A stretch of 32,000 nucleotides of DNA from Chloroflexota bacterium (lineage in GTDB: Bacteria; Chloroflexota; Anaerolineae; J102). The translations under genes were made by a program, and so were the position numbers. The notes beneath the pieces were generated by a model. The model did no database searches. It was not told where the DNA came from and saw only the letters and a program-made list of their open reading frames with translations. The stretch lies in NCBI GenBank assembly GCA_029782215.1, contig JAKOVD010000069.1, forward strand, positions 1 to 32,000, given 5' to 3'. Each line of letters begins with the position of its first letter. Within the stretch, counting starts at the first letter, position 1. Below are positions 1,830 through 32,000 of the stretch, in pieces.

Positions 1830-1850
1830 ACGCACGCTGGCAGTTCTGGA
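1826..1850 (+). pseudogene. Orphaned native 5' end of the oxoprolinase gene (M-N-A-R-W-Q-F-W), cut off by the island insertion
   Basis: ATGAACGCACGCTGGCAGTTCTGGA encodes MNARWQFW, the same WQFW that opens the intact gene at 12295. After 1850 the frame runs into island DNA and stops at 1879. Confidence 0.65.
1838..1850 (+). repeat. attL core (TGGCAGTTCTGGA)
   Basis: Identical to 12295-12307. The match extends to 20 bp with 3 mismatches (CGCAcgcTGGCAGTTCTGGA vs CGCAaagTGGCAGTTCTGGA). Confidence 0.75.
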
Positions 1851-1910
1851 CTAAAAACTGCACACAAAAACCGCTGTAAAAACAACGCACTAGCGTTACG
1901 CTTTGGGCTG

Positions 1911-1928
1911 TGTCAACATTTTGTCAAC
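1911..1928 (+). promoter_or_regulatory. Putative integrase arm-type site pair (TGTCAAC-N4-TGTCAAC)
   Basis: TGTCAAC at 1911-1917 and 1922-1928, 11 bp apart, just upstream of the integrase start and flanked by GGGCTG/CAGCCC. The same motif pairs recur at the other island end. Confidence 0.55.
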
Positions 1929-1934
1929 AGCCCC

Positions 1935-3194
1935 TTGTCTGCAATACAGCGCATCGCGGACGGCAACATAAGCGTCTTTACGAGGCCCTTGGTCAAGGGC
2001 GACGTCTACTACGCCCGATACAGAATCACGAACAAGCGTGTGGCCGATGGCCAGCGGTACGTGACCGAGAGCCTCGACACGACAGACGAAGGCATTGCAC
2101 TCGACCGCGCTCGGCAGCGATACGCCGAAATCAAGGCGGCAGAGAAGGCAAACAAGGCCATCAAGAGTGGCAGCGTCAGTGCCGAGATCGACGCCTTCAT
2201 TGAAGCATACGAAGACGGCGTGAAGAAGGGACTGCGGCGGCACTCGGAGCACATGCTGCGAGGGTTCCGCAAGTCCATCGTCCGTTACTTCAAGGAGTAC
2301 ATCGGGCGGAAGAACATCCAGGACGTGACGGCCCAAGACCTCGAAGAGTACGAGGCATGGCGTCACGGCTACTGGGCGGCGAAGGCAGCTGCGGGTGACA
2401 AGGTGCACGGCAACGCCAAGGAGCGCCCGTCACAGCGCACCATTGAATGGGAAGTCGGTGCCTTCAAGCAGTTCCTGCGATGGGCAAGCGAGCGGGGCCG
2501 CTACAACGGCAACGCCCTGACGTTCAAGTTCACCGTCGACAAGAAGCAAGCTCGTTCGGCGTTCACGGACGAGCAACTCGACACCCTGGCGAACTTCACC
2601 CGGCGCAAGTCATGGGTCCAAGGCGTTGGCAAGCACGGGCACGATGCCCGGCTCACGCGGTACAGAGAGATGTTGCGTGCCTACGTGTTCTTCATGGCCG
2701 GTACGGGCCTGCGTCCGGGTGAAGCCCGCAATCTGCGTTGGCGCGACATCAAGTACACGCAGGGGGCCGACGAGCAGGAAGCAGTGCATGTCATCGTCGA
2801 AGCGACGCACAGCAAGGTCAAGAAGAAGCGGATTGCAGTCGGCCTCGACATTGCGGCGATGGCGATCAGCGGCTTGCAGGGCCGGCGGCGCGCAGCGAAG
2901 GACTACGCCGGAGATGACGACTATGTTTGGTGCGACACCGACGGTGAGGTCATCAAGGACTTCCGCGAAGGGTTCAACAACCTGATCAAAGCCGCAGGCG
3001 TTGAAACGGACTCGCAGGGCAAGAAGCTAGCCATCTACTCGCTGCGGCACTACTACATCTCGCATCGCATCAGGCATGGCGTCGATGCGTATCGGCTGGC
3101 GAAGGCAACGGGCACGAGCCCGGACATGATCCAACGCTTCTACGACCATGTAGAGACGCCGGACATGACCGATGAGTTGACGAAGTATCGCTAG
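1935..3194 (+). CDS. int: Tyrosine recombinase / phage-type integrase
   Basis: 419-aa ORF with a TTG start that is uncertain (no clear SD). C-terminal catalytic motifs are present: GLRPGEARNLRWRDI (Arg I), YSLRHYYISHRI (Arg II/His) and TSPDMIQRFYDHV (Tyr nucleophile). It lies at the island edge. Confidence 0.9.
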   Translation: MSAIQRIADGNISVFTRPLVKGDVYYARYRITNKRVADGQRYVTESLDTTDEGIALDRARQRYAEIKAAEKANKAIKSGSVSAEIDAFIEAYEDGVKKGLRRHSEHMLRGFRKSIVRYFKEYIGRKNIQDVTAQDLEEYEAWRHGYWAAKAAAGDKVHGNAKERPSQRTIEWEVGAFKQFLRWASERGRYNGNALTFKFTVDKKQARSAFTDEQLDTLANFTRRKSWVQGVGKHGHDARLTRYREMLRAYVFFMAGTGLRPGEARNLRWRDIKYTQGADEQEAVHVIVEATHSKVKKKRIAVGLDIAAMAISGLQGRRRAAKDYAGDDDYVWCDTDGEVIKDFREGFNNLIKAAGVETDSQGKKLAIYSLRHYYISHRIRHGVDAYRLAKATGTSPDMIQRFYDHVETPDMTDELTKYR

Positions 3195-3242
3195 GACTGT
3201 CGTGGCACGACGTACGATGGCCGTTCGGAGGAGCACAAACGA

Positions 3243-4637
3243 ATGAGCAGCTTGGACGACTCGCAGATTGCTGTAGCAACCAAGGCATTGCACGACTACA
3301 TGGGCGCGGTAGCCGATCCGGCTACAGGGCAAACGCCCGCCGAGGCAGCGGCGACGCTGGATGCGAATCGTCGCAGCTTGATCGCCGGTAGGCTGGGCGA
3401 TCTGGTCCGCGGCTTTTGCAGTGGTGCGATTGCACTATCCGACTTCAAGCCTGAACTTGACGGACTGAACAAGCGCAACGAGTTCTGGGGCTTCAGCGGC
3501 ATCAAGGGCCAGATGTTCTTCAATCTGCTCTTCAATGCGGCGGGAGACGAGAAGGAGTTGACCGCCGAACTCAGGGCAGCGATCGTGCTGCCCGAGACAG
3601 AGGAAATTGCGCGAAGTCGAATTCGGAACTTCACAAGCTATGTGCGCCGAATCGGTGAGGTCTTGGTCGAGAACGGCGGAAGCAAGCATTCAAGGCCGAA
3701 GGTCACAAGCATCCCCTTCTTCCTGAGCTACTTCTGGCAAGTGCAAGCACCGGATCGTTGGTCGATCTACTACACCAACAGCGTGCGGGTATTGGGTGAT
3801 CTGAACCTGTTTCAAGAGAAGGACGACATCGCTGAGTCCTACAGCGACTACCAGCGCCTGCATGAGGAACTGCGTGACCTGTTCTCAACAATTGCTGCTC
3901 GGCCGATGTCACTGTACGACGTGGAGCACGTATGGTCCTTCGTCGCAAAGGGGCAACTCAATGCCGTGATTGCTGCGCCCGTTGTGTCTCAAGCGCGAGC
4001 GCCGGCGGCAGCCAAAGGCGGTGCGCTACAAGCACCTGTACAAGTGAAGCTGCCAGATAGCTATGTGCCACCCATCGTGGCCGTAATCCCGCAACTTGCT
4101 ACGAACGACCCTGCGCTTGAAGAAGCTGCGAAGGCATCTGGAACAAGCATCCCCCGTGCACTGGAGAAGAGCATCAATGCCGCCTTCACGATGCTTGGCT
4201 ACGAAACGACGCTTCTAGGTCAGGGGGCCGGCCGGGTGCAGGATGGGCTTGCAATCTCGGCTGACGATTCCTACGCGATCCTGTGGGACGCGAAGGCGCG
4301 TCAAGGCGGCTACAAGATGGGCACGGATGACCGAACGATCCGCGACTACATCACGACGCAAAGCCGTGATCTCAAGAAGCGGCGGCGCTTTCGGAATCTC
4401 TACTACGTCATCGTCTCCAGCGGCTTCCAAGACGACTTCGATGACCTGATCCGGGGGCTGAAGATGGAAACCGACGTCAACGAAGTCTGTCTCATTGAGG
4501 CTGATGCACTGGTCGCAATGGTTGACGCCAAGCTGCGCGACCCGAGTCAGGTAACGCTTGGGCCAGATGGACTACAGCGCCTGCTGTGCCGTAGTGGAAC
4601 CCTGACTGCAGACATCGTGCGGGAAGAGATGGCTTGA
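3243..4637 (+). CDS. Two-domain nuclease: unassigned N-terminal domain (~aa 1-240), Ala/Pro linker, and a FokI-like PD-(D/E)xK cleavage domain (~aa 296-464)
   Basis: SD GGAGGA lies upstream of the ATG. The C-terminus aligns by eye with the FokI cleavage domain: ALEKSINAAFTMLGYETTLLGQGAGRVQDGLAISADDSYAILWDAKARQGGYKMGTDDRTIRDYI...YYVIVSSGF...VCLIEADALV...SGTLTADIVREEM. D334, D349 and K351 sit where FokI has D450, D467 and K469. Confidence 0.8.
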   Translation: MSSLDDSQIAVATKALHDYMGAVADPATGQTPAEAAATLDANRRSLIAGRLGDLVRGFCSGAIALSDFKPELDGLNKRNEFWGFSGIKGQMFFNLLFNAAGDEKELTAELRAAIVLPETEEIARSRIRNFTSYVRRIGEVLVENGGSKHSRPKVTSIPFFLSYFWQVQAPDRWSIYYTNSVRVLGDLNLFQEKDDIAESYSDYQRLHEELRDLFSTIAARPMSLYDVEHVWSFVAKGQLNAVIAAPVVSQARAPAAAKGGALQAPVQVKLPDSYVPPIVAVIPQLATNDPALEEAAKASGTSIPRALEKSINAAFTMLGYETTLLGQGAGRVQDGLAISADDSYAILWDAKARQGGYKMGTDDRTIRDYITTQSRDLKKRRRFRNLYYVIVSSGFQDDFDDLIRGLKMETDVNEVCLIEADALVAMVDAKLRDPSQVTLGPDGLQRLLCRSGTLTADIVREEMA

Positions 4638-4671
4638 TCCGCAGCGTGGGTCACCGGTTCCCGGCTTCCGG

Positions 4672-4995
4672 CTACGGCTTGCTGATGTTCGCGATGACAT
4701 GGCCGGTGTAGTGCCGATGCAGCTTCCACCTGCCCGTGATCGTGACGTGCATCCAGCTAGTGGGGGGCTTTCGGCCGAACCAAAGGCAGTTGACCTCTGC
4801 GCGGGTCAAGCCATCCCTGTAGGTGCTGAAGGGAACAGGTACGTCGGACAGTTCGAAGAAGCCCGAGACCTCTGCGTTGCGGATGGATGCGCTGTTGACT
4901 TCGAGGACGAGGGCGTTCTTGACTTGCCGCTCCGACGTAGGCACAGCCGAACGGCATGTGTGAACGATGCCGCTCCAGTCGATGTTCGATTCCAT
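4672..4995 (-). CDS. Hypothetical protein (107 aa)
   Basis: GGAG lies 7 nt upstream of the ATG at 4995. The sequence has normal amino-acid composition, unlike the overlapping plus-strand ORF. No family recognised. Confidence 0.55.
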   Translation of the reverse strand: MESNIDWSGIVHTCRSAVPTSERQVKNALVLEVNSASIRNAEVSGFFELSDVPVPFSTYRDGLTRAEVNCLWFGRKPPTSWMHVTITGRWKLHRHYTGHVIANISKP

Positions 4996-5089
4996 CAGTT
5001 CGCTCCATCTTGTGTCATCGGCGGGATATCGACGGACTCGAAGCCGGGTTTAGCAGCCGACGCTGGCAAGAAGTGAAGAGGTGCGCGTC

Positions 5090-5851
5090 ATGACCGAGGA
5101 ATGGGTCAGCCTTTGGTATCAGTGTCTGACGCAGAACATCGACTACTCGCTTTACTGCGCTGCACGCGAAGAAGGCGACGATGCGAAGTGCGCAGAGCTT
5201 GAAGCGAAGTTCGACAAGATCGCCTCCATCTACGAAGACTTTGGCACGCTCGACGGCTGGCCCGAGGCTGGCATGCAGAGCGAGCTATGGCGGGAGTGGT
5301 TCGAGCCGCGGCGACACCTGTTCATGTCGTCGCCGCGAGTCGTGTCCGACTTGCAGCGGTACGAGGCAAGACCCGGGTACGTACTGCTGGATGTGCCCGT
5401 GCAAGACGACGCCAAGGCAACAGCCGAATTGGTCGCTGCTCTGATAGAGAAGCAGCGACTCTCAGGCGGGACGCAGGCGGCGCCGATGCCGAAGTACACG
5501 CTGCGAGAGGTGGGCAGCAAGGTCGCGCACGGCCTGCAACAGGTAAGGCAAGCCTGTCGATCAGTGGCCCGCAGCTACCGGTACGACCCCGACACGTTCG
5601 AGGAACTGCGTCACGTTGATGCAGTCGCCGCCTTCGTCCGGCACGAGATCGACAACATGGGTTGGACGCTCGACCCGAAGGCCAGGGCTGAACTCGACAG
5701 CACCGGCCGCCTGTCCGAGCAGCGATTGGAGAGCTTCAGGGCCATGTTGAACAAGTGCCGGCGCGACTTCAGGGCGTTTGCGGCCAACACGATCCGGGCC
5801 AGCTTCCCCGACGACAGGCCGTTTGAGTCGAACGTGCTCGATATTCACTAG
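5090..5851 (+). CDS. Hypothetical protein (253 aa)
   Basis: ATG at 5090 is preceded by GAAGAGG; the track's GTG at 5081 is less likely. Trp/Cys-containing N-terminus (MTEEWVSLWYQCLTQNIDYSLYCAAREE). No family recognised. Confidence 0.75.
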   Translation: MTEEWVSLWYQCLTQNIDYSLYCAAREEGDDAKCAELEAKFDKIASIYEDFGTLDGWPEAGMQSELWREWFEPRRHLFMSSPRVVSDLQRYEARPGYVLLDVPVQDDAKATAELVAALIEKQRLSGGTQAAPMPKYTLREVGSKVAHGLQQVRQACRSVARSYRYDPDTFEELRHVDAVAAFVRHEIDNMGWTLDPKARAELDSTGRLSEQRLESFRAMLNKCRRDFRAFAANTIRASFPDDRPFESNVLDIH

Positions 5852-5962
5852 CTTGGAACAAAACCCAGGGCCTCACTGTTCCATGACTAGCCGGGAGTGA
5901 ATCTCTACAGTCCTTTCCATCGACAGCACTCAAGCAGTCGATTAACTTGAAAGGTCTGATAA

Positions 5963-6397
5963 ATGCAAACGCAAAATAGCTCTGCCCCGGCTCAAAAGGG
6001 GTTTATGTCGCGGCTGTCGGCGCTGGTGCCGAATGCAAAGACGGTGAACAAGCTCTACGTTCAGCGTGGCAAGCGGCACGGTATCGAAGATGCACGTCAA
6101 AGTGTCGCCGAGAAGTTGCGCAAAGCTGCTGCTTACGTGCGTGATCCGAACAGCGTAGAACTTGGTGATAACCCCATCAAGCAGCAGGACGACAACGTTT
6201 ATTCGCTGGGGGTCAAATACTGCAACCGCTGGCTGCAAGGCGTGTTCGACGGGGACACCTACATCGTCGGTCTCAATGCCGAAGAGGTCTGCACGCTCGC
6301 CGAAGAAGCTGCACAGGCGGCACTTGCCGGTGAGTTCGACGACTACATCGAGCGCATTATGGCAGAAAACCGCTCTGCAGCCGCTAAGCGTCGATAA
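5963..6397 (+). CDS. Hypothetical protein (144 aa)
   Basis: ORF with balanced composition in the same direction as its neighbours. An alternative start exists at 6005 (MSRLSALV). No family recognised. Confidence 0.65.
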   Translation: MQTQNSSAPAQKGFMSRLSALVPNAKTVNKLYVQRGKRHGIEDARQSVAEKLRKAAAYVRDPNSVELGDNPIKQQDDNVYSLGVKYCNRWLQGVFDGDTYIVGLNAEEVCTLAEEAAQAALAGEFDDYIERIMAENRSAAAKRR

Positions 6398-6406
6398 ATG
6401 TGTCCT

Positions 6407-6431
6407 GGGGGCGAGGCTTGTACTCGCCCCC
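6407..6431 (+). terminator. Intercistronic GC-rich hairpin (GGGGGCGAG-gcttgta-CTCGCCCCC)
   Basis: Perfect 9-bp stem with a 7-nt loop, 10 nt after the 6397 stop and 16 nt before the 6448 start. There is no T-tract, so it may be an attenuator or RNA-stability element rather than a full terminator. Confidence 0.4.
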
Positions 6432-6447
6432 TCAACAAGGAGCAAAT

Positions 6448-6834
6448 ATGCCAGTACACGAATATCGCGCCGATACGCAGGTCGTCTTGATGGGTCGGAT
6501 ACGTGTGGCGGATTGGAGAAACGAGTTGCGGCACATGGAACTGTCGCTACCCGTAGCAGATTCGCTGCTCAAGAAGCTAGCGTCGGAGGACAACGAGCTT
6601 GGTCTCGGTGCAACTGAACTGTTGGACCTACTTCGAGGTCAAGGGGAGATTTCAGACTACGTGAAACTCTCCGACGCTGGTCAGAAAGTGAATCGTACGC
6701 TGACTGCACTTACGAAGATTGCCTGGGAGCACGACGTGCCCTCAAGCGTCGATGAAGTAGAACGAGCAGAAGGCGACGAATACTTCGACAGTTTCAGTGC
6801 GGCCTACACGGTTTCTGGTGGATCCGCCTCATAG
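6448..6834 (+). CDS. Hypothetical acidic protein (128 aa)
   Basis: ATG at 6448 with a strong SD (AAGGAG, 6437-6442). The track's GTG at 6400 would run through the hairpin. No family recognised. Confidence 0.75.
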   Translation: MPVHEYRADTQVVLMGRIRVADWRNELRHMELSLPVADSLLKKLASEDNELGLGATELLDLLRGQGEISDYVKLSDAGQKVNRTLTALTKIAWEHDVPSSVDEVERAEGDEYFDSFSAAYTVSGGSAS

Positions 6835-7401
6835 TTAAGCGAGTTCCACAGCGCGACGCAGCATGTTGTCGTTTACGTCGATATACCTTTGGGTGGTTTG
6901 AATGGAACGATGGCCCGCAAGGGCGGCCAGTACCCGTACTGAAACCCCTTGCGCGGCCAGGTTCGTTATGAAAGTGCGACGGCCCGAGTGCGACGTAGCT
7001 CCTTCCAGGCCGGCACGCCTGTATAGAGCGATGAAATGCTGAGTCAGGGAGTTTGCGCTGAACCCAGTACGCTTTTGCGTCATGAAGAACGGTGCCGCTG
7101 CATCCCTGGATCGCAGCGTACGAGCGTAGACAGCAAGCTCCTTCTGCAAGCGGTCGTTGACGAACACAACGCGGCCGACGTTGCCCTTCGTTTGATGCGC
7201 ACCTAAGCGCAGCTCGCCCCTGACGCGGCCCTCGGCGTCCAACACGTCGCCCACTCGCAGCGCAGCTACCTCGCCCACCCGCATCCCCGCCAGGTGCGTC
7301 AGCAGCAGCATGGCCTTGTCGCGTGCAGCGTGCCGGGACATGGCAGCTTGCCCGAGTGCGTGTCGCAGTTCCTGCGCTGTCAGCGTTTTAGCTTGCTTCA
7401 T
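6835..7401 (-). CDS. Short tyrosine recombinase (catalytic domain only, 188 aa)
   Basis: ATG at 7401 with GAGG upstream. Motifs: LAGMRVGEVAAL (Arg I), SHSGRRTFITNL (His/Arg II), GHRSIQTTQRYIDV (His/Tyr). There is no N-terminal core-binding domain. Confidence 0.85.
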   Translation of the reverse strand: MKQAKTLTAQELRHALGQAAMSRHAARDKAMLLLTHLAGMRVGEVAALRVGDVLDAEGRVRGELRLGAHQTKGNVGRVVFVNDRLQKELAVYARTLRSRDAAAPFFMTQKRTGFSANSLTQHFIALYRRAGLEGATSHSGRRTFITNLAAQGVSVRVLAALAGHRSIQTTQRYIDVNDNMLRRAVELA

Positions 7402-7690
7402 GCCAAACCTCACTTTTTGTTGTATTCAATGCTAGTTTCTGATGTCGTACTTGGGCAACCTACTTGCGGCATGTACTCGGGCCAATGAATTCAAGCACTT
7501 GCAGCACAACATCAGGATTCGTATGAAATCTGATGTATTCGTGGTCCAAAGACGACAACGTACCCCGACAGCGTAAACGCACGCTGTAGCGTGCAAACCC
7601 CTTCCAGCTACCCCACATGCTGGCGGCTCAAAAAAAGCGCTTGCAGCGCGAATTAGTGCGTCACGTATGCAAGCGTGTTCTATAGCCCTG

Positions 7691-7717
7691 CTTATCCCAC
7701 TTATCCCACTTATCCCA
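7691..7717 (+). repeat. Perfect 3 x 9-bp tandem repeat CTTATCCCA (iteron-like)
   Basis: cttatccca cttatccca cttatccca read directly from the sequence, inside a 612-bp gene-free stretch. Confidence 0.85.
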
Positions 7718-7836
7718 AGCACCTCGCATCAACTCGTGTATTTATCTGCGATCTGTCAGTCACTACTGCTTCTCGATGTCGCTGATACTGACTTCGTGTT
7801 GATCTTGTGTGATTATTGACTGGTCGTGTAGATGTT

Positions 7837-7858
7837 TGATAGTGGTTGGTGATAGTGG
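7837..7858 (+). repeat. Direct repeat TGATAGTGG x2 (13-bp period), with a degenerate third copy TGATACTG at 7783-7790
   Basis: Read directly from the sequence. The reverse complement CCACTATCA resembles the 7691-7717 unit (CCACTTATC) with one T fewer, so this is a second, opposite-orientation repeat set. Confidence 0.7.
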
Positions 7859-7883
7859 GAATGTTTAGACAATGGCTATCGCA

Positions 7884-7903
7884 ATGAGCATCCCTATGCT
7901 CAT
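7884..7903. other. Perfect hairpin ATGAGCAT-CCCT-ATGCTCAT (candidate nick/ori hairpin or terminator)
   Basis: 8-bp perfect inverted repeat with a 4-nt loop, 110 bp downstream of the Rep-like gene stop. Confidence 0.5.
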
Positions 7904-8013
7904 GCGATTCGTCCAAATTTTCATCAAGCTACGTACGCTGACCTTGGCGGTAACCTAAGCGGTCGTTCAGCGCGGCCCGTACATTCTGTTCGGCCTCTAC
8001 GCAGTTGAATTCT

Positions 8014-8517
8014 TCACGGCATCAACGGTTTTGGTATTGACGCTAGGCACCACTCTATGGCCTCGCAGTTTAGTCCGTCTGCTTCTTTGCTGACGTACCA
8101 TGCAAGACCACTGGAGTCGTACATTTCCTTCACATCATACCTCGGGAGTAACCACTGTGATCGGCGTATGTAGCTGCGCATATGTGCATCGAGTTCGGCG
8201 CGAGACTTGACGTTCCCGACCAATATATGCGCATGAATCCGTTTGTTGCCATGCGCGCCCTCAATGATCGGCACGTACAGGACACGGCACTTATCGTTGA
8301 ACTTCGACTTATTACCCCAGATTGCGCTGTTGAGCGTTGCACCGAGGTGCCGTAGCTGCGCTCGTGCCTGCTCGTACGTAGGCTCCAAGCTCAAGTCGTA
8401 CGCCTTCCCGAACGTTACTGTAAGCATGTAGTCCACCCACGGCATGTAGCGATTCAGCATCCGTGCATTCAGGTCCTGCAACGTAGCTAGCGGGACGGAG
8501 ACTTTGTTTTCTGGCAT
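8014..8517 (-). CDS. Small HUH-superfamily Rep-like protein (167 aa); possibly the YagK/YfjJ (inovirus Gp2-like) type seen in integrative islands
   Basis: ATG at 8517 with GAGG 6 nt upstream. Three motifs are in canonical order: MLTVTF (motif I, aa 31-36), RIHAHILVG (HUH, H95/H97) and AWYVSKEADG (YxxK, Y141). No helicase domain. Confidence 0.6.
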   Translation of the reverse strand: MPENKVSVPLATLQDLNARMLNRYMPWVDYMLTVTFGKAYDLSLEPTYEQARAQLRHLGATLNSAIWGNKSKFNDKCRVLYVPIIEGAHGNKRIHAHILVGNVKSRAELDAHMRSYIRRSQWLLPRYDVKEMYDSSGLAWYVSKEADGLNCEAIEWCLASIPKPLMP

Positions 8518-8663
8518 ATAAGACCTCATAGTTCTGTGCACTATTTAGCAAAATCTTAGGTTTGCGGCCTGAAAATGGTTTACTTGCGCTGATTCCCGGT
8601 CGACCTGCTGCTGGTTGAGGGAGCAAAGTTGCGGCATGTGAAACGCAATGGGAAGGAAATCAC

Positions 8664-9125
8664 ATGCAACTCGCAAAGCTCAAGCTGGTGTCCGCAGTGC
8701 GTCGTCGGAAGACGGTTGCCGACATCCGGCGCGACAAGCTGCTGGGCAAGCTGGACGAGCAGATCGGGCTGGCAACTGCGCAGGTCGAAGGCAAGACGTT
8801 CGAAGCCAAGCGAGCCAAGGTCGTCGTGGACGCTGACGGTCGTCGTGGGCGCGAGCTGGTGCCGGCCCGCGTCAAACAGTGGTGGTGGAAGACGAGCGAC
8901 GGCAAGCTGCTGTTCACGATCCAGTACGGCACGAAGCCGCTGGAACTGGCCAAGGGCAAGCCGGCCGTCGAAGTGGGCAACATGCAGGAACTCATCGAGG
9001 CCCTGCAGAGCGTGCGTGCTGCCACCGAGGCCGGCGAGCTTGACGGTCACATCGAGACTGCCAGTGCGTCGCTGGGTGTCGCGTTCAAGCGCAAGACCAG
9101 CAAGGGCGGTGCGCGGGCGCACTGA
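8664..9125 (+). CDS. Hypothetical protein (153 aa)
   Basis: SD GGAAGGA lies upstream of the ATG. Divergent from the Rep-like gene. Sequence includes KQWWWKTSDGKLLFTIQYGTKPLEL. No family recognised with confidence. Confidence 0.75.
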   Translation: MQLAKLKLVSAVRRRKTVADIRRDKLLGKLDEQIGLATAQVEGKTFEAKRAKVVVDADGRRGRELVPARVKQWWWKTSDGKLLFTIQYGTKPLELAKGKPAVEVGNMQELIEALQSVRAATEAGELDGHIETASASLGVAFKRKTSKGGARAH

Positions 9126-9321
9126 CCGGGGCATGCGGCGCAGACAACAGCGCCAGCGTGCGGTTTCAGCGCCGATCAGCGATGAGTCGGTCTGACGCAC
9201 GCACGGGCTGAATGGGAAACGCCCCGGCTCAAGTGCCCGGCGTCGGCCTCAAGGCTGGTGCGTGAGTCGTGGTCAAGGAGCCCGGCCGAGAGCGCGGGCT
9301 TGATGCAACAGGCGTGATGCG

Positions 9322-9486
9322 ATGGACAGGTACAAGGCGACGGTTCGAGTTCAGGCCCCGTCCGGGCATGGCAAGTTGACGACGTGGGCCGAGGTGCGGG
9401 CGTCGAATCCGAACATGGCGCGGCAGCTGCTCGAAGCGCAGTTCGGCCGGGGAAACGTGGTCGGCGTGCCCGTGCGTTGCGGGTAG
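9322..9486 (+). CDS. Small hypothetical protein (54 aa, not in ORF track)
   Basis: My own translation: MDRYKATVRVQAPSGHGKLTTWAEVRASNPNMARQLLEAQFGRGNVVGVPVRCG*. Third codon positions are strongly G/C-biased, which fits coding sequence. The SD is weak. Confidence 0.45.
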   Translation: MDRYKATVRVQAPSGHGKLTTWAEVRASNPNMARQLLEAQFGRGNVVGVPVRCG

Positions 9487-9537
9487 GCTGTGGCCGTGGT
9501 GCTGGGCTAAATACAAGGACAGCACTACGGAGGCAGC

Positions 9538-9747
9538 ATGAGACTTGAGGAGATACAGCCGTCGAACGCGGCGGAGCAACGAGTGAAGAGGATGAAGGCG
9601 AGCGCGAAGGCGGCCAAGGACAGGGCACGACAGCTACAGGCCCAGGCCGACACGAGCGCGGAGCGGTTGGACATGCAGCAGTCGCGGCAGAAGCTGGCGC
9701 AGCTACAGCGCAAGGCAGCATCGTCCACCATCAAGCCTTACACGTGA
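9538..9747 (+). CDS. Small basic, coiled-coil-like hypothetical protein (69 aa)
   Basis: GGAGG lies 4 nt upstream of the ATG. The sequence is Lys/Arg/Gln/Ala-rich and predicted helical. Confidence 0.55.
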   Translation: MRLEEIQPSNAAEQRVKRMKASAKAAKDRARQLQAQADTSAERLDMQQSRQKLAQLQRKAASSTIKPYT

Positions 9748-9949
9748 ACTGCGAACGTCGAGAGAGAGCCACGCCAGCGCCGTGCAGGTGGCAGCGTGGC
9801 AGAAATTGCTGAATTTGTTGGACGCGGCGAAGGGGTGGGCAACGACCGCAGAGTGGACAACCTATGTACGTTTATCCAGTACACTTGACGGGGCCATACG
9901 CGCCTGCAAGACCCAGTTGCTGATGACTCAACGACCAAGATGACTACAC

Positions 9950-10732
9950 ATGGACATGAAGTCTGGTGACCTGTTCGAGCAGGAGACGACTAAGCGCCGG
10001 CGTGTGCAAGGTGGCGTAGCGTCTACCGGCGCAGTGCTCTCTTCACATACGGGCGACAACTCAGAGTTGTTCCCCAAGGTTCTCGCCATGTATGTCCCCA
10101 AAGGGGCACGCATTGCGGACGTGACCTACGGAACGGGTGTGTTCTGGAAGAACGTCGACACGAGCGAGTACGAGTTCCTGCCGTCAGACCTCAAGACCGG
10201 TGTTGATGCGAGGCACCTGCCGTACGAGGACAGCTACCTTGACGCATTTGTTCTTGACCCGCCCTACATGGAAGGTCTATACCGAGACGCTACGTCGAAG
10301 CTGGCCGGTGGCGGGTCGCACGATGCGTTCCGCGAGTACTACTCCAACGGTCAAGCTACGTCGGACAAGACGCTGAAGTACCACGACAAGGTCATCGACA
10401 TGTACATGACGATTGGCCTTGAGGCGCGGCGAACGCTACGTGACGGCGGAGTATTCATCGTCAAGTGCCAAGACGAGGTGAGCGCGAATCGACAGAAGCT
10501 GACGCACGTGGAACTGATCTTTGGGTATGAACAGTTGGGGTTCTACTGCAAAGACCTGTTCGTGCTCACAAGAACAAACAAGCCAGCAGTTGCGCGCCTG
10601 ATCAAACAGGAACACTCCCGCAAGAACCACAGCTACTTCCTGGTCTTCGTCCTGGGCAAAGGGCGGAAGAAGCTGCCATACAGCAACTTCCGGTCATTGC
10701 TGGCGAGCTACGCCGATCGCATCTCAAAGTGA
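9950..10732 (+). CDS. SAM-dependent DNA methyltransferase (DPPY motif; N6-adenine or N4-cytosine)
   Basis: Motif I is IADVTYGTGVFW (aa 55-66) and motif IV is LDPPY (DPPY at aa 103-106, nt 10256-10267). Motif I preceding motif IV with a short gap gives a gamma-like order. An alternative ATG exists at 9956. Confidence 0.85.
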   Translation: MDMKSGDLFEQETTKRRRVQGGVASTGAVLSSHTGDNSELFPKVLAMYVPKGARIADVTYGTGVFWKNVDTSEYEFLPSDLKTGVDARHLPYEDSYLDAFVLDPPYMEGLYRDATSKLAGGGSHDAFREYYSNGQATSDKTLKYHDKVIDMYMTIGLEARRTLRDGGVFIVKCQDEVSANRQKLTHVELIFGYEQLGFYCKDLFVLTRTNKPAVARLIKQEHSRKNHSYFLVFVLGKGRKKLPYSNFRSLLASYADRISK

Positions 10733-11371
10733 CCTTGCAGTTGCAAAGAGGTCCGTACTCCAGTGATCGGTCAATGGGTAGGTGATCTCTTCAGTTGTTG
10801 CAAGCAAGTACCTCTGCTGCTCCGGGGTGTATTTGTTGGAAGTGGTCAGCCGGCAGTTGCGATTGAGCTTGTACGCGAACTCCCAAGTGCCGGTGAACGG
10901 AAAGAGTGGCACGGCAAGGATGTGATAGTCGCCAACACGATAGTTGGTAGTGGTTACGACGTCACCGTTAGGTAGTCTCACGTCACGCTTGTCGCTTCCA
11001 TCGTTCTGTACAACGCCGTGAAGGGCTTGCAGGTCTTCGCGCCATACGATCGAGTTGGTCTGTAACGACTTCAACTGAATCGAGACGCGGCGGCCTTCGA
11101 ACACAAAGTCAGTGTCGACCTTGTTGTTCTCTCTGTCGTGGTCGTCGTGTTGGCGTACATCCGTAATGCGTGGATCGCGCAGCACTGTCTTTCCAAACAT
11201 CTCTTCAGCGATGTAGCCCAAGATCATTCCGCGCAGACTCGGTGCACGCTTGATTGCGAGCACCAGGTCCTCGGGTGGGATAGCGTCAACGATGGTAGAC
11301 ACCCTCTCCCTAGCTGCGACGGCGAGCCTGTGATCAGGGTTCTTCTGGCCTCTTGCCACGCGAGTCGCCAT
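10724..11371 (-). CDS. Putative PD-(D/E)xK restriction endonuclease (215 aa)
   Basis: Convergent with the methylase, with 3' ends overlapping by 9 bp. Candidate catalytic residues are E56/E57 (IAEEMF), D86/D88 (VDTDFVF) and Q99-x-K101 (SIQLKS). Assigned from motif pattern and context only. Confidence 0.6.
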   Translation of the reverse strand: MATRVARGQKNPDHRLAVAARERVSTIVDAIPPEDLVLAIKRAPSLRGMILGYIAEEMFGKTVLRDPRITDVRQHDDHDRENNKVDTDFVFEGRRVSIQLKSLQTNSIVWREDLQALHGVVQNDGSDKRDVRLPNGDVVTTTNYRVGDYHILAVPLFPFTGTWEFAYKLNRNCRLTTSNKYTPEQQRYLLATTEEITYPLTDHWSTDLFATARSL

Positions 11372-11459
11372 ACGAGCATTTCTCCCTCTGTTATCGAGGG
11401 TTCAACCATATCAGACTGTTACGGCGCAGCGATCCAGAAAGCAGGAAGCAGGTGGTTGC

Positions 11460-12005
11460 CTACCAGCGGCGGCCGAAGCGCAGCGCCGCACTGGGCGTCG
11501 ACGCTCGGCTGAGAAGCTCTTGGTACGTATCCACGACCCCATCAATGCACGATGCGACTGCTTGTAGGTCCAGGGATCGATCGACAGCGAAGCCTTCGGC
11601 TGCAAAGGAACTTCCGTATCGCGGCGCAGCGTGTCCAAAGTGCTCAGGTAGGTAGTCGCTGACCAAGGGTCGAGGAAGGACTGGTTGCCAAAACGAGGGT
11701 TCGGAGGCGGACTCGCTCGCACCGTACGCAACGAGTAGCACTGACGCCGCCTTGAAGTAGAGCACCGCCGGATAGCTGCCGCGTGCGGGAGAGTGTCCTG
11801 GACCAAAGAAGCCAAGCCACGGAACGCGAGCGGGTGTGCCCTTTCCAAAACTGACTTTGACTCGCAAGGAACGGTACTGCGTCGGGTAGTGGCTGACATA
11901 CAGACTGTTCGACGCCGTTGCTTGCTGCATAAACTTCTCCAGCAACGCGGGCAAGTCGGTGTCAGTGGTCATGGGCGACGGTTGAACTGGGCTGTACGAC
12001 ATCAT
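11460..12005 (-). CDS. Stand-alone DUF3578 / MrcB_N-like DNA-reader domain protein (181 aa)
   Basis: LRVKVSFGKGTPARVPWLGFFGPGHSPARGSYPAVLYFKAASVLLVAYGASE matches my recollection of the DUF3578 signature (vkgSvGqGnwaevPWiai...GyYvvYLF...vyLsL). The start is uncertain (12005 or 11972) and there is no clear SD. Confidence 0.6.
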   Translation of the reverse strand: MMSYSPVQPSPMTTDTDLPALLEKFMQQATASNSLYVSHYPTQYRSLRVKVSFGKGTPARVPWLGFFGPGHSPARGSYPAVLYFKAASVLLVAYGASESASEPSFWQPVLPRPLVSDYLPEHFGHAAPRYGSSFAAEGFAVDRSLDLQAVASCIDGVVDTYQELLSRASTPSAALRFGRRW

Positions 12006-12176
12006 AGGAGGCGAGCTTGTGGGTGCGCATGGCTGCGGCCGGAAAGTCGATCAAGCGACCCAACGCTCATCGATTCCGTCGATGACCACATAGAGAATTT
12101 CTCTGTTGGACGCTGATTGCAGCGGCCACCAGAATGAGCACGTACGACAACGCAAGGGTGCGATCACCAAGGCGTG

Positions 12177-12194
12177 TGTCAACGGATTGTCAAA
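12177..12194 (+). promoter_or_regulatory. Putative integrase arm-type site pair (TGTCAAC-N4-TGTCAAA)
   Basis: Copies at 12177-12183 and 12188-12194, 11 bp apart, in the same orientation as the attL-side pair. Confidence 0.5.
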
Positions 12195-12237
12195 ACCCAC
12201 GTCACGGGCCTGCTGCGCAGTACGTCGAATTCTCGTC

Positions 12238-12255
12238 TGTCAACGCCGTGTCAAC
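12238..12255 (+). promoter_or_regulatory. Putative integrase arm-type site pair (TGTCAAC-N4-TGTCAAC)
   Basis: Copies at 12238-12244 and 12249-12255, 11 bp apart, 40 bp from the attR core. Confidence 0.55.
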
Positions 12256-12267
12256 ACAGTTTTCCCC

Positions 12268-15978
<3,711 letters not shown>

Positions 15979-29971: not shown

Positions 29972-30188
29972 GTGTGCGAGGGGCGGTGAGGCGCGCCGGT
30001 GGAAGTCGGCCCGAGCGACGGGTCGGACCTTGCCTTCGGCGTCATCGTCCTCACGGCCGCCAGGTGAGCCATGAGCACGGGGGGCGATCCTGCCGAGTCG
30101 CGCCAGGCGCGCGGCGAGTCAAGCGCGCGTGCCCCGAGGTCTTGGCGGTGTTGCGCTTCGAGGTTGACTGCAAGCCGCACTCGCGGTG

Positions 30189-30884
30189 CTACTCAATGGC
30201 CTTGGCGAACCTTTCGAATCGCGGCAGCCAGTCACCCGTCGCGTTTGCCGAGACGAGAATGTGATGTGCCCGGCCAATGAGCAGGCGTCGTGAGACAACG
30301 CCGATGTACCGGGAGTCGGCGCTGTTGTCGCGGTTGTCTCCAAGAAGGAAGTAGCTGCTTTCAGGGACCTTGATCGGGCCGAACGACCGCATCGCGATTA
30401 CGTCCGGCAGGAACTGGACAGCATGCTCACGCTGGCCGAGTTGCTCGGTTCTGCGAAGGCTCCTGGCGTTGTCCGTTCCGATCGGTTCCAAGCCAGACTC
30501 CGCCTCGCCGTACTCGACTGGAACTCCGTTGATGAAGAGTCTTTCGCTCCTCATTTCAATCGTGTCGCCTGGGAGACCGACGACGCGTTTGATCAGGCGC
30601 ACGCCGTCCTTGGGCGAAGTGAAAGTGACAACATCTCCGCGCTTGGGCTCGCCGAGTTGCGCCAGGGAGATGTCCGTGAGCGGGACCTTGAAGTCGTAGG
30701 CCAGTCGATTGACCAAGACGACGTCGCCTTCCAGGAGGGTGGGTCGCATCGACGAAGACGGGATCGGGTTCCAGTCGGCAAACGCTGTTCGGAAGAAGCC
30801 GAAGCAAATGAGAAAGATCAGGAATCCGCGGTTCTCTTTGAGCCAGTGCTTCATGTGTGCCTTGAGTGCGTTCCTGCGACCCAA
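30189..30884 (-). CDS. lepB: Signal peptidase I
   Basis: Boxes SSSMRPTL (Ser), RGDVVTF, LIKRVVGLPGDTI (Lys) and FLLGDNRDNSADSRYIG. The start may be ATG 30854 rather than TTG 30884. Lower-GC codon usage than the core. Confidence 0.85.
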   Translation of the reverse strand: MGRRNALKAHMKHWLKENRGFLIFLICFGFFRTAFADWNPIPSSSMRPTLLEGDVVLVNRLAYDFKVPLTDISLAQLGEPKRGDVVTFTSPKDGVRLIKRVVGLPGDTIEMRSERLFINGVPVEYGEAESGLEPIGTDNARSLRRTEQLGQREHAVQFLPDVIAMRSFGPIKVPESSYFLLGDNRDNSADSRYIGVVSRRLLIGRAHHILVSANATGDWLPRFERFAKAIE

Positions 30885-30961
30885 CGTTGGAGGTCACTGG
30901 CGCTGCGCGACTCTATCGCGCAGCATCCGATGGGCCGAAAGCTTGTGTCTCAGTGGCCGGT

Positions 30962-31663
30962 TCATTGGTAGTAAGACTCGAAATAGGACAATGGTGGGAT
31001 CCCTTGCTGAGTGTCCTTGTCAAGCTTGCCATAAAAGAGATCGAATAGACCGCGAGGGACGTACTCGCCGCTCACTACTCGCTTTATCCGTTCGACGCGC
31101 TCACGGTTGCGCTCAGGGTAACGACTGACATCGAAGGTTGCGGGGGCGATCAGCATGGCCACGAGGGCAATGTACTGGTCTTCGTTCAGCTGCGGAAAGG
31201 GTTTGCCGAAAAACGTTTGAGATGCTTGGGCAAACCCATTTGTATCTGGACCGAAGTAGGCAGTATTGATGAAGAGCCGCAGTTGATCGTTCTTGGCCAT
31301 CAGCGGATCGAGTGCGAATCGGGCGATGGCAGTTTGCTTCAACTTGGCAATGCTTGGGCTGAACTTCTCGAAATAGAGATGTTTGACCAAGGCTTGCGTG
31401 ATCGTTGTGATACCTGCTCCCGGAGTCGAAAGATCAACGCCGCTGTGCTCGAAGAAGCGAGGGTCTTCGACTTTGAGCAGTATCTCGACTTGCCGCAGGG
31501 AAAGATCAGAAATCGCCAGCGAGTACTGAGTGTTGCGATAGCTTGGGAGCAGGGTGCTAACCGTGTACTCACGTGCCGAATGGATGATCCACGCGAAGTA
31601 CACGACAGCGCCGAGCACACACGCCAATGCGGCCAAACCAACGCGACGAAACAGCTTGGCCAT
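30962..31663 (-). CDS. Membrane-anchored GT51 (peptidoglycan glycosyltransferase-like) domain protein, no transpeptidase domain
   Basis: N-terminal TM segment (VGLAALACVLGAVVYFAWII), then LLKVEDPRFFEHSGVD (motif 1, EDxxFxxHxG) and GAGITTITQALVKHL (motif 2-like). Start at ATG 31663. Confidence 0.75.
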   Translation of the reverse strand: MAKLFRRVGLAALACVLGAVVYFAWIIHSAREYTVSTLLPSYRNTQYSLAISDLSLRQVEILLKVEDPRFFEHSGVDLSTPGAGITTITQALVKHLYFEKFSPSIAKLKQTAIARFALDPLMAKNDQLRLFINTAYFGPDTNGFAQASQTFFGKPFPQLNEDQYIALVAMLIAPATFDVSRYPERNRERVERIKRVVSGEYVPRGLFDLFYGKLDKDTQQGIPPLSYFESYYQ

Positions 31664-31807
31664 GGGAGAGACTCGGTGAGGCATGACGTTTGAGCCGAGG
31701 CGCTGACGCCGGGAAGGTGCTTGGCGCGGGATGCGGATGATGTACCACAGCGCCTCGCGGGCCAAGAGCCATGCCGGTGCGAGCTGGCTCCAGCAAAGGG
31801 GTAAGCG

Positions 31808-32000
31808 TCACCGCTCGCTGGCTGCCAGCTTGGCCCCGAGGCCAGCAAAGGCAGCGGCAAAGCTGTAGCGGAGCCAACGCTGAACCGATGCGGACTCGAT
31901 GACATGGCGGCGAAAGGCATGCGCCACAAAGCCGTAGACGACGAAGACAGCGAACGTCATGGCCATGAAGATGCCGCTCAGCGTGAGCAACTGAACAAGC
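31808..32000 (-). CDS. LysE/RhtB-family translocator, C-terminal fragment (runs off the window)
   Basis: ...LVQLLTLSGIFMAMTFAVFVVYGFVAHAFRRHVIESASVQRWLRYSFAAAFAGLGAKLAASER is the typical LysE-family C-terminus. The frame is open to the window edge. Confidence 0.7.
   Translation of the reverse strand, partial: LVQLLTLSGIFMAMTFAVFVVYGFVAHAFRRHVIESASVQRWLRYSFAAAFAGLGAKLAASER

Follow-up and report, generated by a model that had tools for sequence, protein, structure and literature searches.

A stand-alone McrB-type reader gene beside an NruI/Sbo13I-family restriction-modification pair at the end of a mobile island

A DNA-reading domain of the kind found at the head of McrB GTPases is encoded on its own in the stretch of DNA studied here, next to a methylase and a nuclease, and the question raised by this locus is what such a reader does in that company. 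The stretch, hereafter the window, comprises 32,000 nucleotides from a Chloroflexota bacterium (assembly GCA_029782215.1, contig JAKOVD010000069.1, positions 1 to 32,000 of the forward strand). The methylase gene (M) and the nuclease gene (R) converge and overlap tail to tail by 9 bp (10724-10732), and the reader gene is located 88 bp upstream of R on the same strand. All three open reading frames (ORFs), the overlap and the gap were found at the positions given in an earlier, sequence-only reading of the window (Table 1), which had offered two interpretations: an ordinary type II restriction-modification (R-M) system with an orphan reader, or a split enzyme consisting of reader and nuclease. 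To our knowledge, this methylcytosine-flipping domain has been known only as the targeting head of McrBC. Our analysis favors, with a probability of roughly one half, a self-sufficient R-M system accompanied by a non-catalytic reader whose target is the methyl mark, and for which shielding is the preferred role.

The identity of the reader was examined at the domain level. Its residues 21-166 align to residues 7-153 of the EcoKMcrB N-terminal domain (3SSC) with an E-value of 7e-26 and approximately 40% identity over 146 residues, and a further alignment covers positions 6-152 of the McrB equivalog model of NCBIfam, PRK11331 (E=3e-25). The score against the Pfam family MrcB_N (PF12102) was 15.1 bits, which is under the cutoff of 25. 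Since homologues of the reader do pass this cutoff, the miss reflects divergence from the model rather than membership in another family. DUF3578, also called "ADAM", is by definition the EcoKMcrB N-domain (PMC11090510). Thus, the matches to 3SSC and to the McrB model bear out the proposal that the protein consists of a DUF3578/MrcB_N-type domain only. The proposed lack of an AAA/GTPase module was also borne out, with no such module and no AAA_5 match in the reader ORF or elsewhere in the window. By comparison with the homologue on contig L017, described below, translation probably starts at the ATG at 11972, which gives a protein of 170 aa.

In EcoKMcrB-N, the base-binding pocket is lined by Trp49, Leu68, Tyr117 and Tyr64, with Tyr64 and Leu68 discriminating the methyl group; Ser38 and Trp49 form the phosphate clamp, and there is room for an N4-methyl or a 5-hydroxymethyl group beside Ser120 (PMC3424535). 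All of these residues are kept in the reader, where S52, W63, Y78, L82, Y130 and S133 correspond to S38, W49, Y64, L68, Y117 and S120 of EcoK. The pocket of the E. coli domain shuts out adenine (PMC3424535). It accommodates N4-methylcytosine (N4mC, 4mC or m4C), and EcoKMcrBC restricts DNA containing 4mC, 5-methylcytosine (5mC) or 5-hydroxymethylcytosine (PMC3424535, PMC7641849). The reader thus appears to be the base-flipping N-terminal domain of McrB in a functional, stand-alone form.

The only close relative of the reader is P0122, a protein with 57% identity encoded on the 941-bp contig L017. Both ORFs are intact and end at the same position, and the ratio of nonsynonymous to synonymous substitution rates (dN/dS) between them is about 0.19, an approximate value given that dS is near saturation. 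Judged by this ratio and by the state of the two ORFs, the reader is an intact, selected gene under purifying selection. Apart from stand-alone proteins, the reader is closest, with 47% identity, to the reader domains found in full-length McrB GTPases; one of these GTPases, an 839-aa McrB (L019), aligns to the window through the reader domain only (11493-11960). The readers of the window and of L017 also have in common a basic C-terminal tail, RFGRR(W/T) (11460-11480 in the window), which follows about 15 divergent residues and could be a docking or a nucleic-acid-binding peptide.

The neighbors of the reader could be assigned to a characterized family. A tblastn search of plasmids with the nuclease identified pSB13 from Shigella boydii (5,424 bp), in which a 75-aa HTH regulator lies on one side of the R homologue and a convergent DNA methyltransferase on the other, with a 6-bp overlap of R and M. 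Sbo13I was cloned from a 5.4-kb plasmid of S. boydii C13, in which a control protein gene (C) is followed by the convergent R and M genes (PMC2890505, Zhu et al. 2010), and because the size of about 5.4 kb and the C-R-M layout match this description we take pSB13 to be the Sbo13I plasmid. The window's nuclease is 38.5% identical to R.Sbo13I over 179 aa (E=6e-35), and its methylase is 54.7% identical to M.Sbo13I (E=5e-96). Sbo13I cuts TCG^CGA and is an isoschizomer of NruI; the two systems show only 46% (R) and 49% (M) identity, yet have the same TCGCGA specificity (PMC2890505). The C protein is present upstream of R in Sbo13I and absent in NruI (PMC2890505). No ORF for an HTH C protein was found upstream of R in the window, where the reader holds this slot.

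The motifs of both enzymes agree with this family. Methylases of the family have the motif order of the gamma group with DPPY where this group usually has NPPY (PMC2890505). In the window's methylase, motif I (ADVTYGTGVFW; ADxTYGxGVFW in the family) precedes motif IV (DPPY, in the context DPPYMEGLYR), which is a gamma-like order. The protein matches phrog_24333 (E=1e-66) and scores below threshold against the Pfam family N6_N4_Mtase (24.5 bits). We found no PDB sequence match for it, using either the single sequence or the family profile, and no distinction between m4C and N6-methyladenine (N6mA or m6A) was drawn from its single-sequence structure model, which has a mean predicted local distance difference test (pLDDT) score of 41. 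The methylase is a putative amino-methyltransferase with either N6mA or N4mC as product. M.NruI probably makes N6mA and M.Sbo13I probably N4mC (PMC2890505), and the literature on TCGCGA methylomes does not settle the question of m4C or m6A for the family. Orphan homologues of the methylase with 57% identity are present in the Mycobacterium phages Dallas, Pelly, Dexes, Niza and Wheeler, which suggests that this methylase family serves phages as an escape from NruI-type restriction.

The nuclease motif of the family is DD-X21-EVK or DD-X20-QIK (PMC2890505). The window's nuclease has D76-D77-X21-Q99-L-K101, a motif that is invariant in 18 family members. It has 779 homologues of about 215-225 aa, and the invariant residues of the family are E56, D76-D77-H78, D86 and Q99-x-K101. 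The nuclease gave no match in searches of Pfam, NCBIfam, PADLOC or PDB sequences, and PADLOC gave none for the methylase or the reader either. The AlphaFold2 model of the nuclease (pLDDT 91) has top fold matches in the PDB that are all PD-(D/E)xK enzymes, namely I-Ssp6803I, Hjc, RecU/PrfA, MGME1 and HincII. The fold matches and the homology to R.Sbo13I agree with the earlier assignment of the 215-aa protein as a PD-(D/E)xK nuclease.

The recognition site of the pair is most probably TCGCGA, cut as TCG^CGA, as inferred from the homology. The window contains 5 copies of this hexamer where 18.8 are expected (z=-3.2, Poisson P=2e-4), and of the 34 palindromic hexamers that could be tested it is the most depleted. 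The depletion is circumstantial and fits the presence of a TCGCGA-specific system in the lineage. AGCGCT, AAGCTT and ATCGAT are also somewhat depleted in the window, possibly as a trace of further R-M systems, past or present. Taken at the level of homology, M and R are a known, characterized type II R-M system and an ordinary member of the NruI/Sbo13I family. The R-M part of the first earlier interpretation therefore stands.

The pair was next compared with its relatives in other genomes. The nuclease was found in 16 genome loci, in 15 of which the methylase adjoins it, whereas the 16th ends at the end of the contig; the arrangement is convergent in 14 of the 15, and the reader is absent from all 16. 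Six further metagenome loci have a nuclease with 73-91% identity and the methylase, again with no reader. The pair thus occurs reader-free in 21 other loci (15 from genomes and 6 from metagenomes), which indicates that the nuclease does not need the reader. The nucleases of islands that lack the reader are 91-93% identical to that of the window and have the same length. The closest genome is that of Leptothrix discophora (L001; nuclease 93% identical), in which the DNA homology to the window spans 8926-11371 and ends exactly at the nuclease start codon. In another locus, L069, the nuclease is 91% identical and the island uses the same attachment (att) site, and the reader is absent. As judged from gene content across these loci, the comparison shows M and R to be a self-sufficient type II R-M system carried as cargo at the end of the island. 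In a more distant locus (L071; nuclease 73% identical), the slot of the reader is taken by an unrelated 310-aa gene (3980-4912) with no Pfam match, which precedes the nuclease by 88 bp in the same orientation.

A second instance of reader and nuclease was identified on contig L017, where 92 bp after the stop codon of P0122 the sequence ATG GCG ACT CGA CTC GCA... encodes MATRLARGQKNADHALAVAAR, the N-terminus of the window's nuclease family. The pair is thus found outside this genome, as the sequence-only reading had required, in a diverged form. The reader diverges faster than the nuclease, with 57% identity for the reader as compared to approximately 86% for the 21 nuclease residues visible in L017. 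A four-way alignment of the window, L017, L069 and L001 places the reader in a cassette of about 640 bp, inserted between the island-end segment and a region proximal to the nuclease. By this alignment, the reader is shown to be a separate accessory cassette that is present in some islands and absent from near relatives.

The nuclease-proximal region of about 55 nt is kept in reader-bearing (window, L017) and reader-free (L069, L001) islands alike. The spacer contains an extended -10-like element TGATATGGT (TGnTATGGT, 11405-11413) and a Shine-Dalgarno sequence for the nuclease, GAGGGAG (11382-11388). Because the region is kept irrespective of the reader, the nuclease probably has a promoter of its own. 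A sigma-70 promoter scan of 9700-12400 returned no site, so the conserved extended -10-like element is the sole basis for this promoter. No terminator was found between reader and nuclease, and the sole terminator-like site was inside the nuclease ORF.

The relatives of the reader were collected in a full HMMER search of 1.8 billion representative sequences, which gave 425 of them. The long members are McrB proteins with MrcB_N and AAA_5 domains, some of which also have EVE domains. A word-index homologue search returned only the reader itself and P0122, and a scan of viral contigs with the reader gave no match. The stand-alone clade of the reader consists of four proteins with 37-57% identity (the window's reader, P0122, P0123 and P0125), and all four adjoin R-M-like modules that contain an amino-methylase. 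The modules include three unrelated nuclease types. P0125 (L021) is divergent, and its neighbors are an RHH gene, a DPPY methylase of 731 aa and an ORF of 364 aa. Downstream of P0123 (L076-78) come an RHH gene, an N6_Mtase/Eco57I-like protein of 721 aa, an N6_N4 methylase of 306 aa that carries SPPY, and an ORF of 368 aa with weak similarity to PLD. L021 (3444-4336) and L076 (89-1190) have only the reader (48% identity) and the RHH/CopG-like protein (63%) in common, and the reader-RHH pair is divergent in the former and co-directional in the latter. The methylases and putative nucleases of these two loci show no relationship to one another or to the enzymes of the window. L076 starts with a fragment resembling the 3' half of a tRNA, and the reader may therefore be a terminal island gene there as well. 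ARAGORN did not call the tRNA-like fragments in L001 and L076.

Single-chain proteins in which MrcB_N is fused to NucS_C served as a control. In 22 such loci, none had a methylase neighbor: 105 ORFs neighboring the fused readers contained no methylase family, no motif IV and no PCQ signature. A nominal Fisher test of 4/4 against 0/22 gives a probability of approximately 7e-5, with the qualification that the four clade members are not fully independent. No fusion of a reader to the window's nuclease family was found among 150 representatives of the reader family. The term "orphan" thus undersells the reader, which is under purifying selection, precedes the same nuclease on a second, diverged contig and has methylase neighbors throughout its clade.

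The earlier statement that DUF3578 normally forms the N-terminus of McrB-like GTPases calls for correction, as fusions and stand-alone proteins without a GTPase are common. Fusions of MrcB_N to NucS_C, a PD-(D/E)xK domain, are numerous and have lengths of about 305-320 aa (L023-L059). Their neighbors include SLFN-g3/DUF2075 helicases in 7 and MazG-like proteins in 5 of the 22 loci. A second stand-alone clade of about 152 aa (L063-L067), on contigs of up to 646 kb, is encoded in an operon with one or more short Vsr-like ORFs, MrcB_N and an SLFN-g3/DUF2075 helicase of 654-658 aa, followed by a C5 DNA methylase in three of five loci. Toxin-antitoxin and Fic genes are located near these operons. 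Such proteins already carry the NCBI label "MrcB family domain-containing protein", and MrcB_N without a GTPase is not rare but common in sequence databases. No description of MrcB_N+NucS_C fusions or of stand-alone MrcB_N was found in the literature searched. Comparable arrangements have been described for other proteins: stand-alone EVE proteins with restriction partners (PMC7641849), a SauUSI-type system with a specificity protein encoded apart and DUF3427 nucleases beside DUF2075 (both PMC6765204).

How the reader might act can be considered in light of these associations. We infer that what the reader acts on is the methyl mark rather than the nuclease, because the reader's clade is found with unrelated nucleases and always with methylases, whereas the nuclease-fused versions avoid methylases. 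The prediction is that it binds, but does not cleave, DNA with N4- or 5-methylcytosine after a purine (purine-mC), and the mark that it reads could be that of the neighboring methylase. N4mC on the inner C of TCGCGA would give G-m4C, the context that the domain prefers, and the system's own mark would then be readable. Cytosine marks are plausible near members of both stand-alone clades, considering the probable N4mC product of M.Sbo13I, the SPPY methylase of L076 and the C5 methylases beside the 152-aa clade. A reader sitting at methylated sites would act as a competitive shield against resident methylation-dependent nucleases of the McrBC type and would thereby let the methylase-carrying mobile element and its host survive. 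Lethal conflicts do arise between mobile R-M systems and methylation-dependent nucleases, and such systems evolve means of circumventing them (PMC8989522). The shield mechanism is speculative; we prefer it because the reader resembles a captured McrB head (47% identity), evolves fast and is patchily distributed on mobile DNA, and because the conflict is real (PMC8989522). Control by methylation sensing is a close second, and the role of the reader would accordingly be that of a shield or of a sensor. An extension of this explanation to the clade, which we put forward tentatively, is that its stand-alone McrB-N proteins are portable, non-catalytic accessories of methylase-carrying mobile elements that bind the element's own N4mC or 5mC and either shield it or report it to R-M control.

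Several observations weigh against a mark-reading shield. If the methylase makes m6A, as M.NruI probably does, the reader could not read the mark, since its pocket is predicted to exclude adenine. The intercalating Tyr41 of EcoKMcrB is replaced by Lys55 in the reader; in the E. coli domain, mutation of Tyr41 leads to poor binding, and Tyr41 is not conserved in natural homologues (PMC3424535). A bound roadblock could also stimulate McrBC cleavage instead of blocking it. The location of reader and nuclease on the same strand, with a spacing of 88-92 bp and no terminator, is also compatible with co-expression and a functional link to the nuclease. The TCGCGA specificity derives from homology and site depletion only. 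Finally, the number of associations is small, as the window and L017 belong to a single island family and the reader-RHH pair is common to L021 and L076.

The most serious rival, which we nevertheless regard as unlikely, is that the reader is a methylation-sensing controller that occupies the slot of the C protein and tunes the expression of R or M, as an alternative to C-protein timing. The 75-aa HTH C protein is encoded directly upstream of the homologous R gene in pSB13 and in an E. coli plasmid, no C gene is present in the Leptothrix-type islands, where the reader fills this position; in addition, the reader travels with an RHH regulator in L021 and L076 while the R-M enzymes differ, and no terminator separates it from R. 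However, TCGCGA is absent from 11372-12294, the nearest sites being at 4689 and 13559, and there is therefore no obvious cognate site for control in cis. The same R-M system is found in L001 and L069 with neither reader nor C protein, the RHH proteins of L021 and L076 are already candidates for a controller, and no role as a transcription factor is known for the domain. The reader could instead be an independent hitch-hiker, either a defense-island passenger that serves an unlinked partner or a lone blocker of modified phage DNA, and to this we assign a small chance. Such a role would fit a separable cassette that is present or absent among near-identical islands, the pairing of the 152-aa clade with DUF2075 helicases, which makes other partners possible, and the fact that PADLOC has no model for the reader. 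Yet the contrast of 4/4 to 0/22 in methylase neighbors is hard to ascribe to generic clustering, and the island offers no candidate partner, as its FokI-like match is below threshold.

We consider it improbable that the reader docks on the 215-aa nuclease to form a split, GTPase-free enzyme of type IV character that targets modified foreign DNA, which was the second interpretation of the sequence-only reading. Two diverged instances do have the genes on the same strand with spacings of 88 and 92 bp and no terminator between them, the MrcB_N+NucS_C single chains combine a reader with a PD-(D/E)xK domain and no GTPase, the conserved RFGRR tail could serve for docking, and there are precedents in the SauUSI-like (PMC6765204) and stand-alone EVE (PMC7641849) systems. 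Against this, the nuclease is a homologue of a sequence-specific type II restriction endonuclease (REase), has a cognate methylase and occurs reader-free in the 21 loci. It is 91-93% identical and equal in length with or without the reader, which argues against an extra docking domain, and it is preceded by its own promoter-like and Shine-Dalgarno region. Fusions to this nuclease family were seen in 0 of the 150 reader-family representatives, the clade is found with three nuclease types, and the true fused readers of type IV character avoid methylase neighborhoods. That the reader is a decaying, non-functional fragment of a former McrB gene is highly improbable. The closest long relatives are indeed full-length McrB GTPases (47% identity to the reader domain of L019) and the Pfam score is below threshold, but the ORF is intact and ends at the same place in the 57%-identical copy, dN/dS is 0.19, all pocket residues are kept, no GTPase remnants flank the gene and many stand-alone MrcB_N genes are located on long contigs.

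The features of the locus and of the island that carries it are listed in Table 1. The island extends from about 1851 to 12294, approximately 10.4 kb between the two 13-nt att repeats, and is inserted at the 5' end of the host oxoprolinase/hydantoinase gene, for which it supplies a substitute N-terminus (ATG at 12268, plus strand). Its guanine-plus-cytosine (GC) content is 55-61%, as compared to 71-75% in the host, and the reader is its last gene. The att junction is identical in L069, which also has the island-end motifs in common with the window. No tRNA was found at the ends of the window's island.

Table 1. Positions of the three genes under study and of the island features in the window.
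Feature	Position	Strand	Description	Basis
Methylase gene (M)	9950-10732	+	260 aa, VLDPPY	ORF list
Nuclease gene (R)	10724-11371	-	215 aa	ORF list
Spacer between reader and nuclease	11372-11459	-	88 bp, up to the nuclease ATG	ORF coordinates
Reader gene	11460-12005	-	181 aa as called; stand-alone EcoKMcrB-N domain	
Island terminus	12006-12294		Upstream region of the reader, TTGACA-N5-GTTGACA-type repeats, replacement oxoprolinase 5' end	
attR core	12295-12307		TGGCAGTTCTGGA	13-nt direct repeat and alignment
attL core	1838-1850		Matching TGGCAGTTCTGGA	13-nt direct repeat and alignment
Displaced original oxoprolinase 5' end	from ~1826		ATGAACGCACGC (MNAR-WQFW), left junction, by attL	
Integrase gene	1935-3194		419 aa, near attL	
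464-aa ORF	3243-4637	+	Tagged FokI_cleav_dom in precomputed data	

Repeats of the type TTGACA-N4-5-GTTGACA are inverted at the two ends of the island (about 1900-1925 and 12170-12260) and are also present upstream of the L017 reader and at the island end of L069. Their function may be that of arm sites for a recombinase or of promoter elements. The genes carried by the island include two tyrosine recombinases, a DUF6641 protein and a weakly Rep-like ORF. The 464-aa ORF was considered as a partner of the reader and as a third nuclease, and was rejected for both. It proved uninformative because its match to the FokI cleavage domain is below the Pfam threshold (14.9 bits against 25), it has no PDB match and it is absent from the related islands. 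The earlier count of up to three nuclease modules is thus weakly supported with respect to this gene. At its right end, the window has a second stretch of low GC content (56-61%, about 30000-32000), whose genes code for a protein resembling S26 signal peptidases (30189-30884, minus strand) and one with a transglycosylase domain (30962-31765, minus strand). This stretch may be the edge of another acquired element.

The methylase and the nuclease are by themselves a routine pair, and their membership in the NruI/Sbo13I family provides an immediately testable specificity, TCGCGA. The reader is an independent, selected gene that recurs on mobile DNA, joined to the control side of R-M modules that are unrelated to one another, whereas versions of the domain fused to a nuclease avoid methylases. 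A stand-alone ADAM domain in the putative role of an R-M accessory is a variant for which we found no description in the literature searched. If the reader does bind the mark of its neighboring methylase, this would be a bacterial pairing of writer and reader with a non-destructive output, and possibly a novel means by which selfish R-M elements withstand methyl-directed restriction when they reach a new host. Whether shield or report, the reader would then add an undescribed layer to a system of writer plus nuclease.

Comparison with known systems shows where the locus is ordinary and where it departs. With Sbo13I and NruI it has in common homologous R (39%) and M (55%) enzymes, the convergent overlap, a DPPY methylase of gamma order, the motif DD-X21-(E/Q)xK and the location on mobile DNA. 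It differs from Sbo13I in that a gene for an McrB-N reader takes the slot of the HTH C protein, and from both in having QLK in place of EVK; QxK is also found in the RspRS homologue (PMC2890505). The reader has the pocket, clamp and S120 residues of EcoKMcrB-N (3SSC) at approximately 40% identity, but is encoded without the AAA+ GTPase or McrC, has Lys in place of Tyr41 and carries the RFGRR tail. In relation to the type IV system McrBC, neither the AAA+ module nor McrC (DUF2357 plus PD-DxK) was found here, and the nuclease is a homologue of type II REases. Unlike in single-chain modification-dependent REases, reader and nuclease are encoded by two ORFs that differ in frame and lie 88 bp apart.

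The stand-alone EVE proteins with SWI2/SNF2-type partners (PMC7641849) and the SauUSI-like systems (PMC6765204) resemble the locus in encoding a modified-base reader as a small gene of its own beside restriction genes. Their readers are, however, PUA- or SRA-like and act with motor-nucleases that have no specificity of their own, whereas here the neighbors are a complete, sequence-specific type II R-M system that does not depend on the reader. The MrcB_N+NucS_C fusions and the MrcB_N proteins of about 152 aa use the same reader family without the McrB GTPase; the former bring their own nuclease and have methylase neighbors in 0 of 22 loci, the latter pair with a helicase, and the window's clade pairs with R-M. 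Finally, PcaRCI and PcaRCII (PMC8989522) represent the same conflict between a mobile R-M system and resident methyl-directed nucleases. In PcaRCI, promoter methylation silences the antagonist, whereas a reader that competes for the methylated sites would, speculatively, resolve the conflict by another mechanism.

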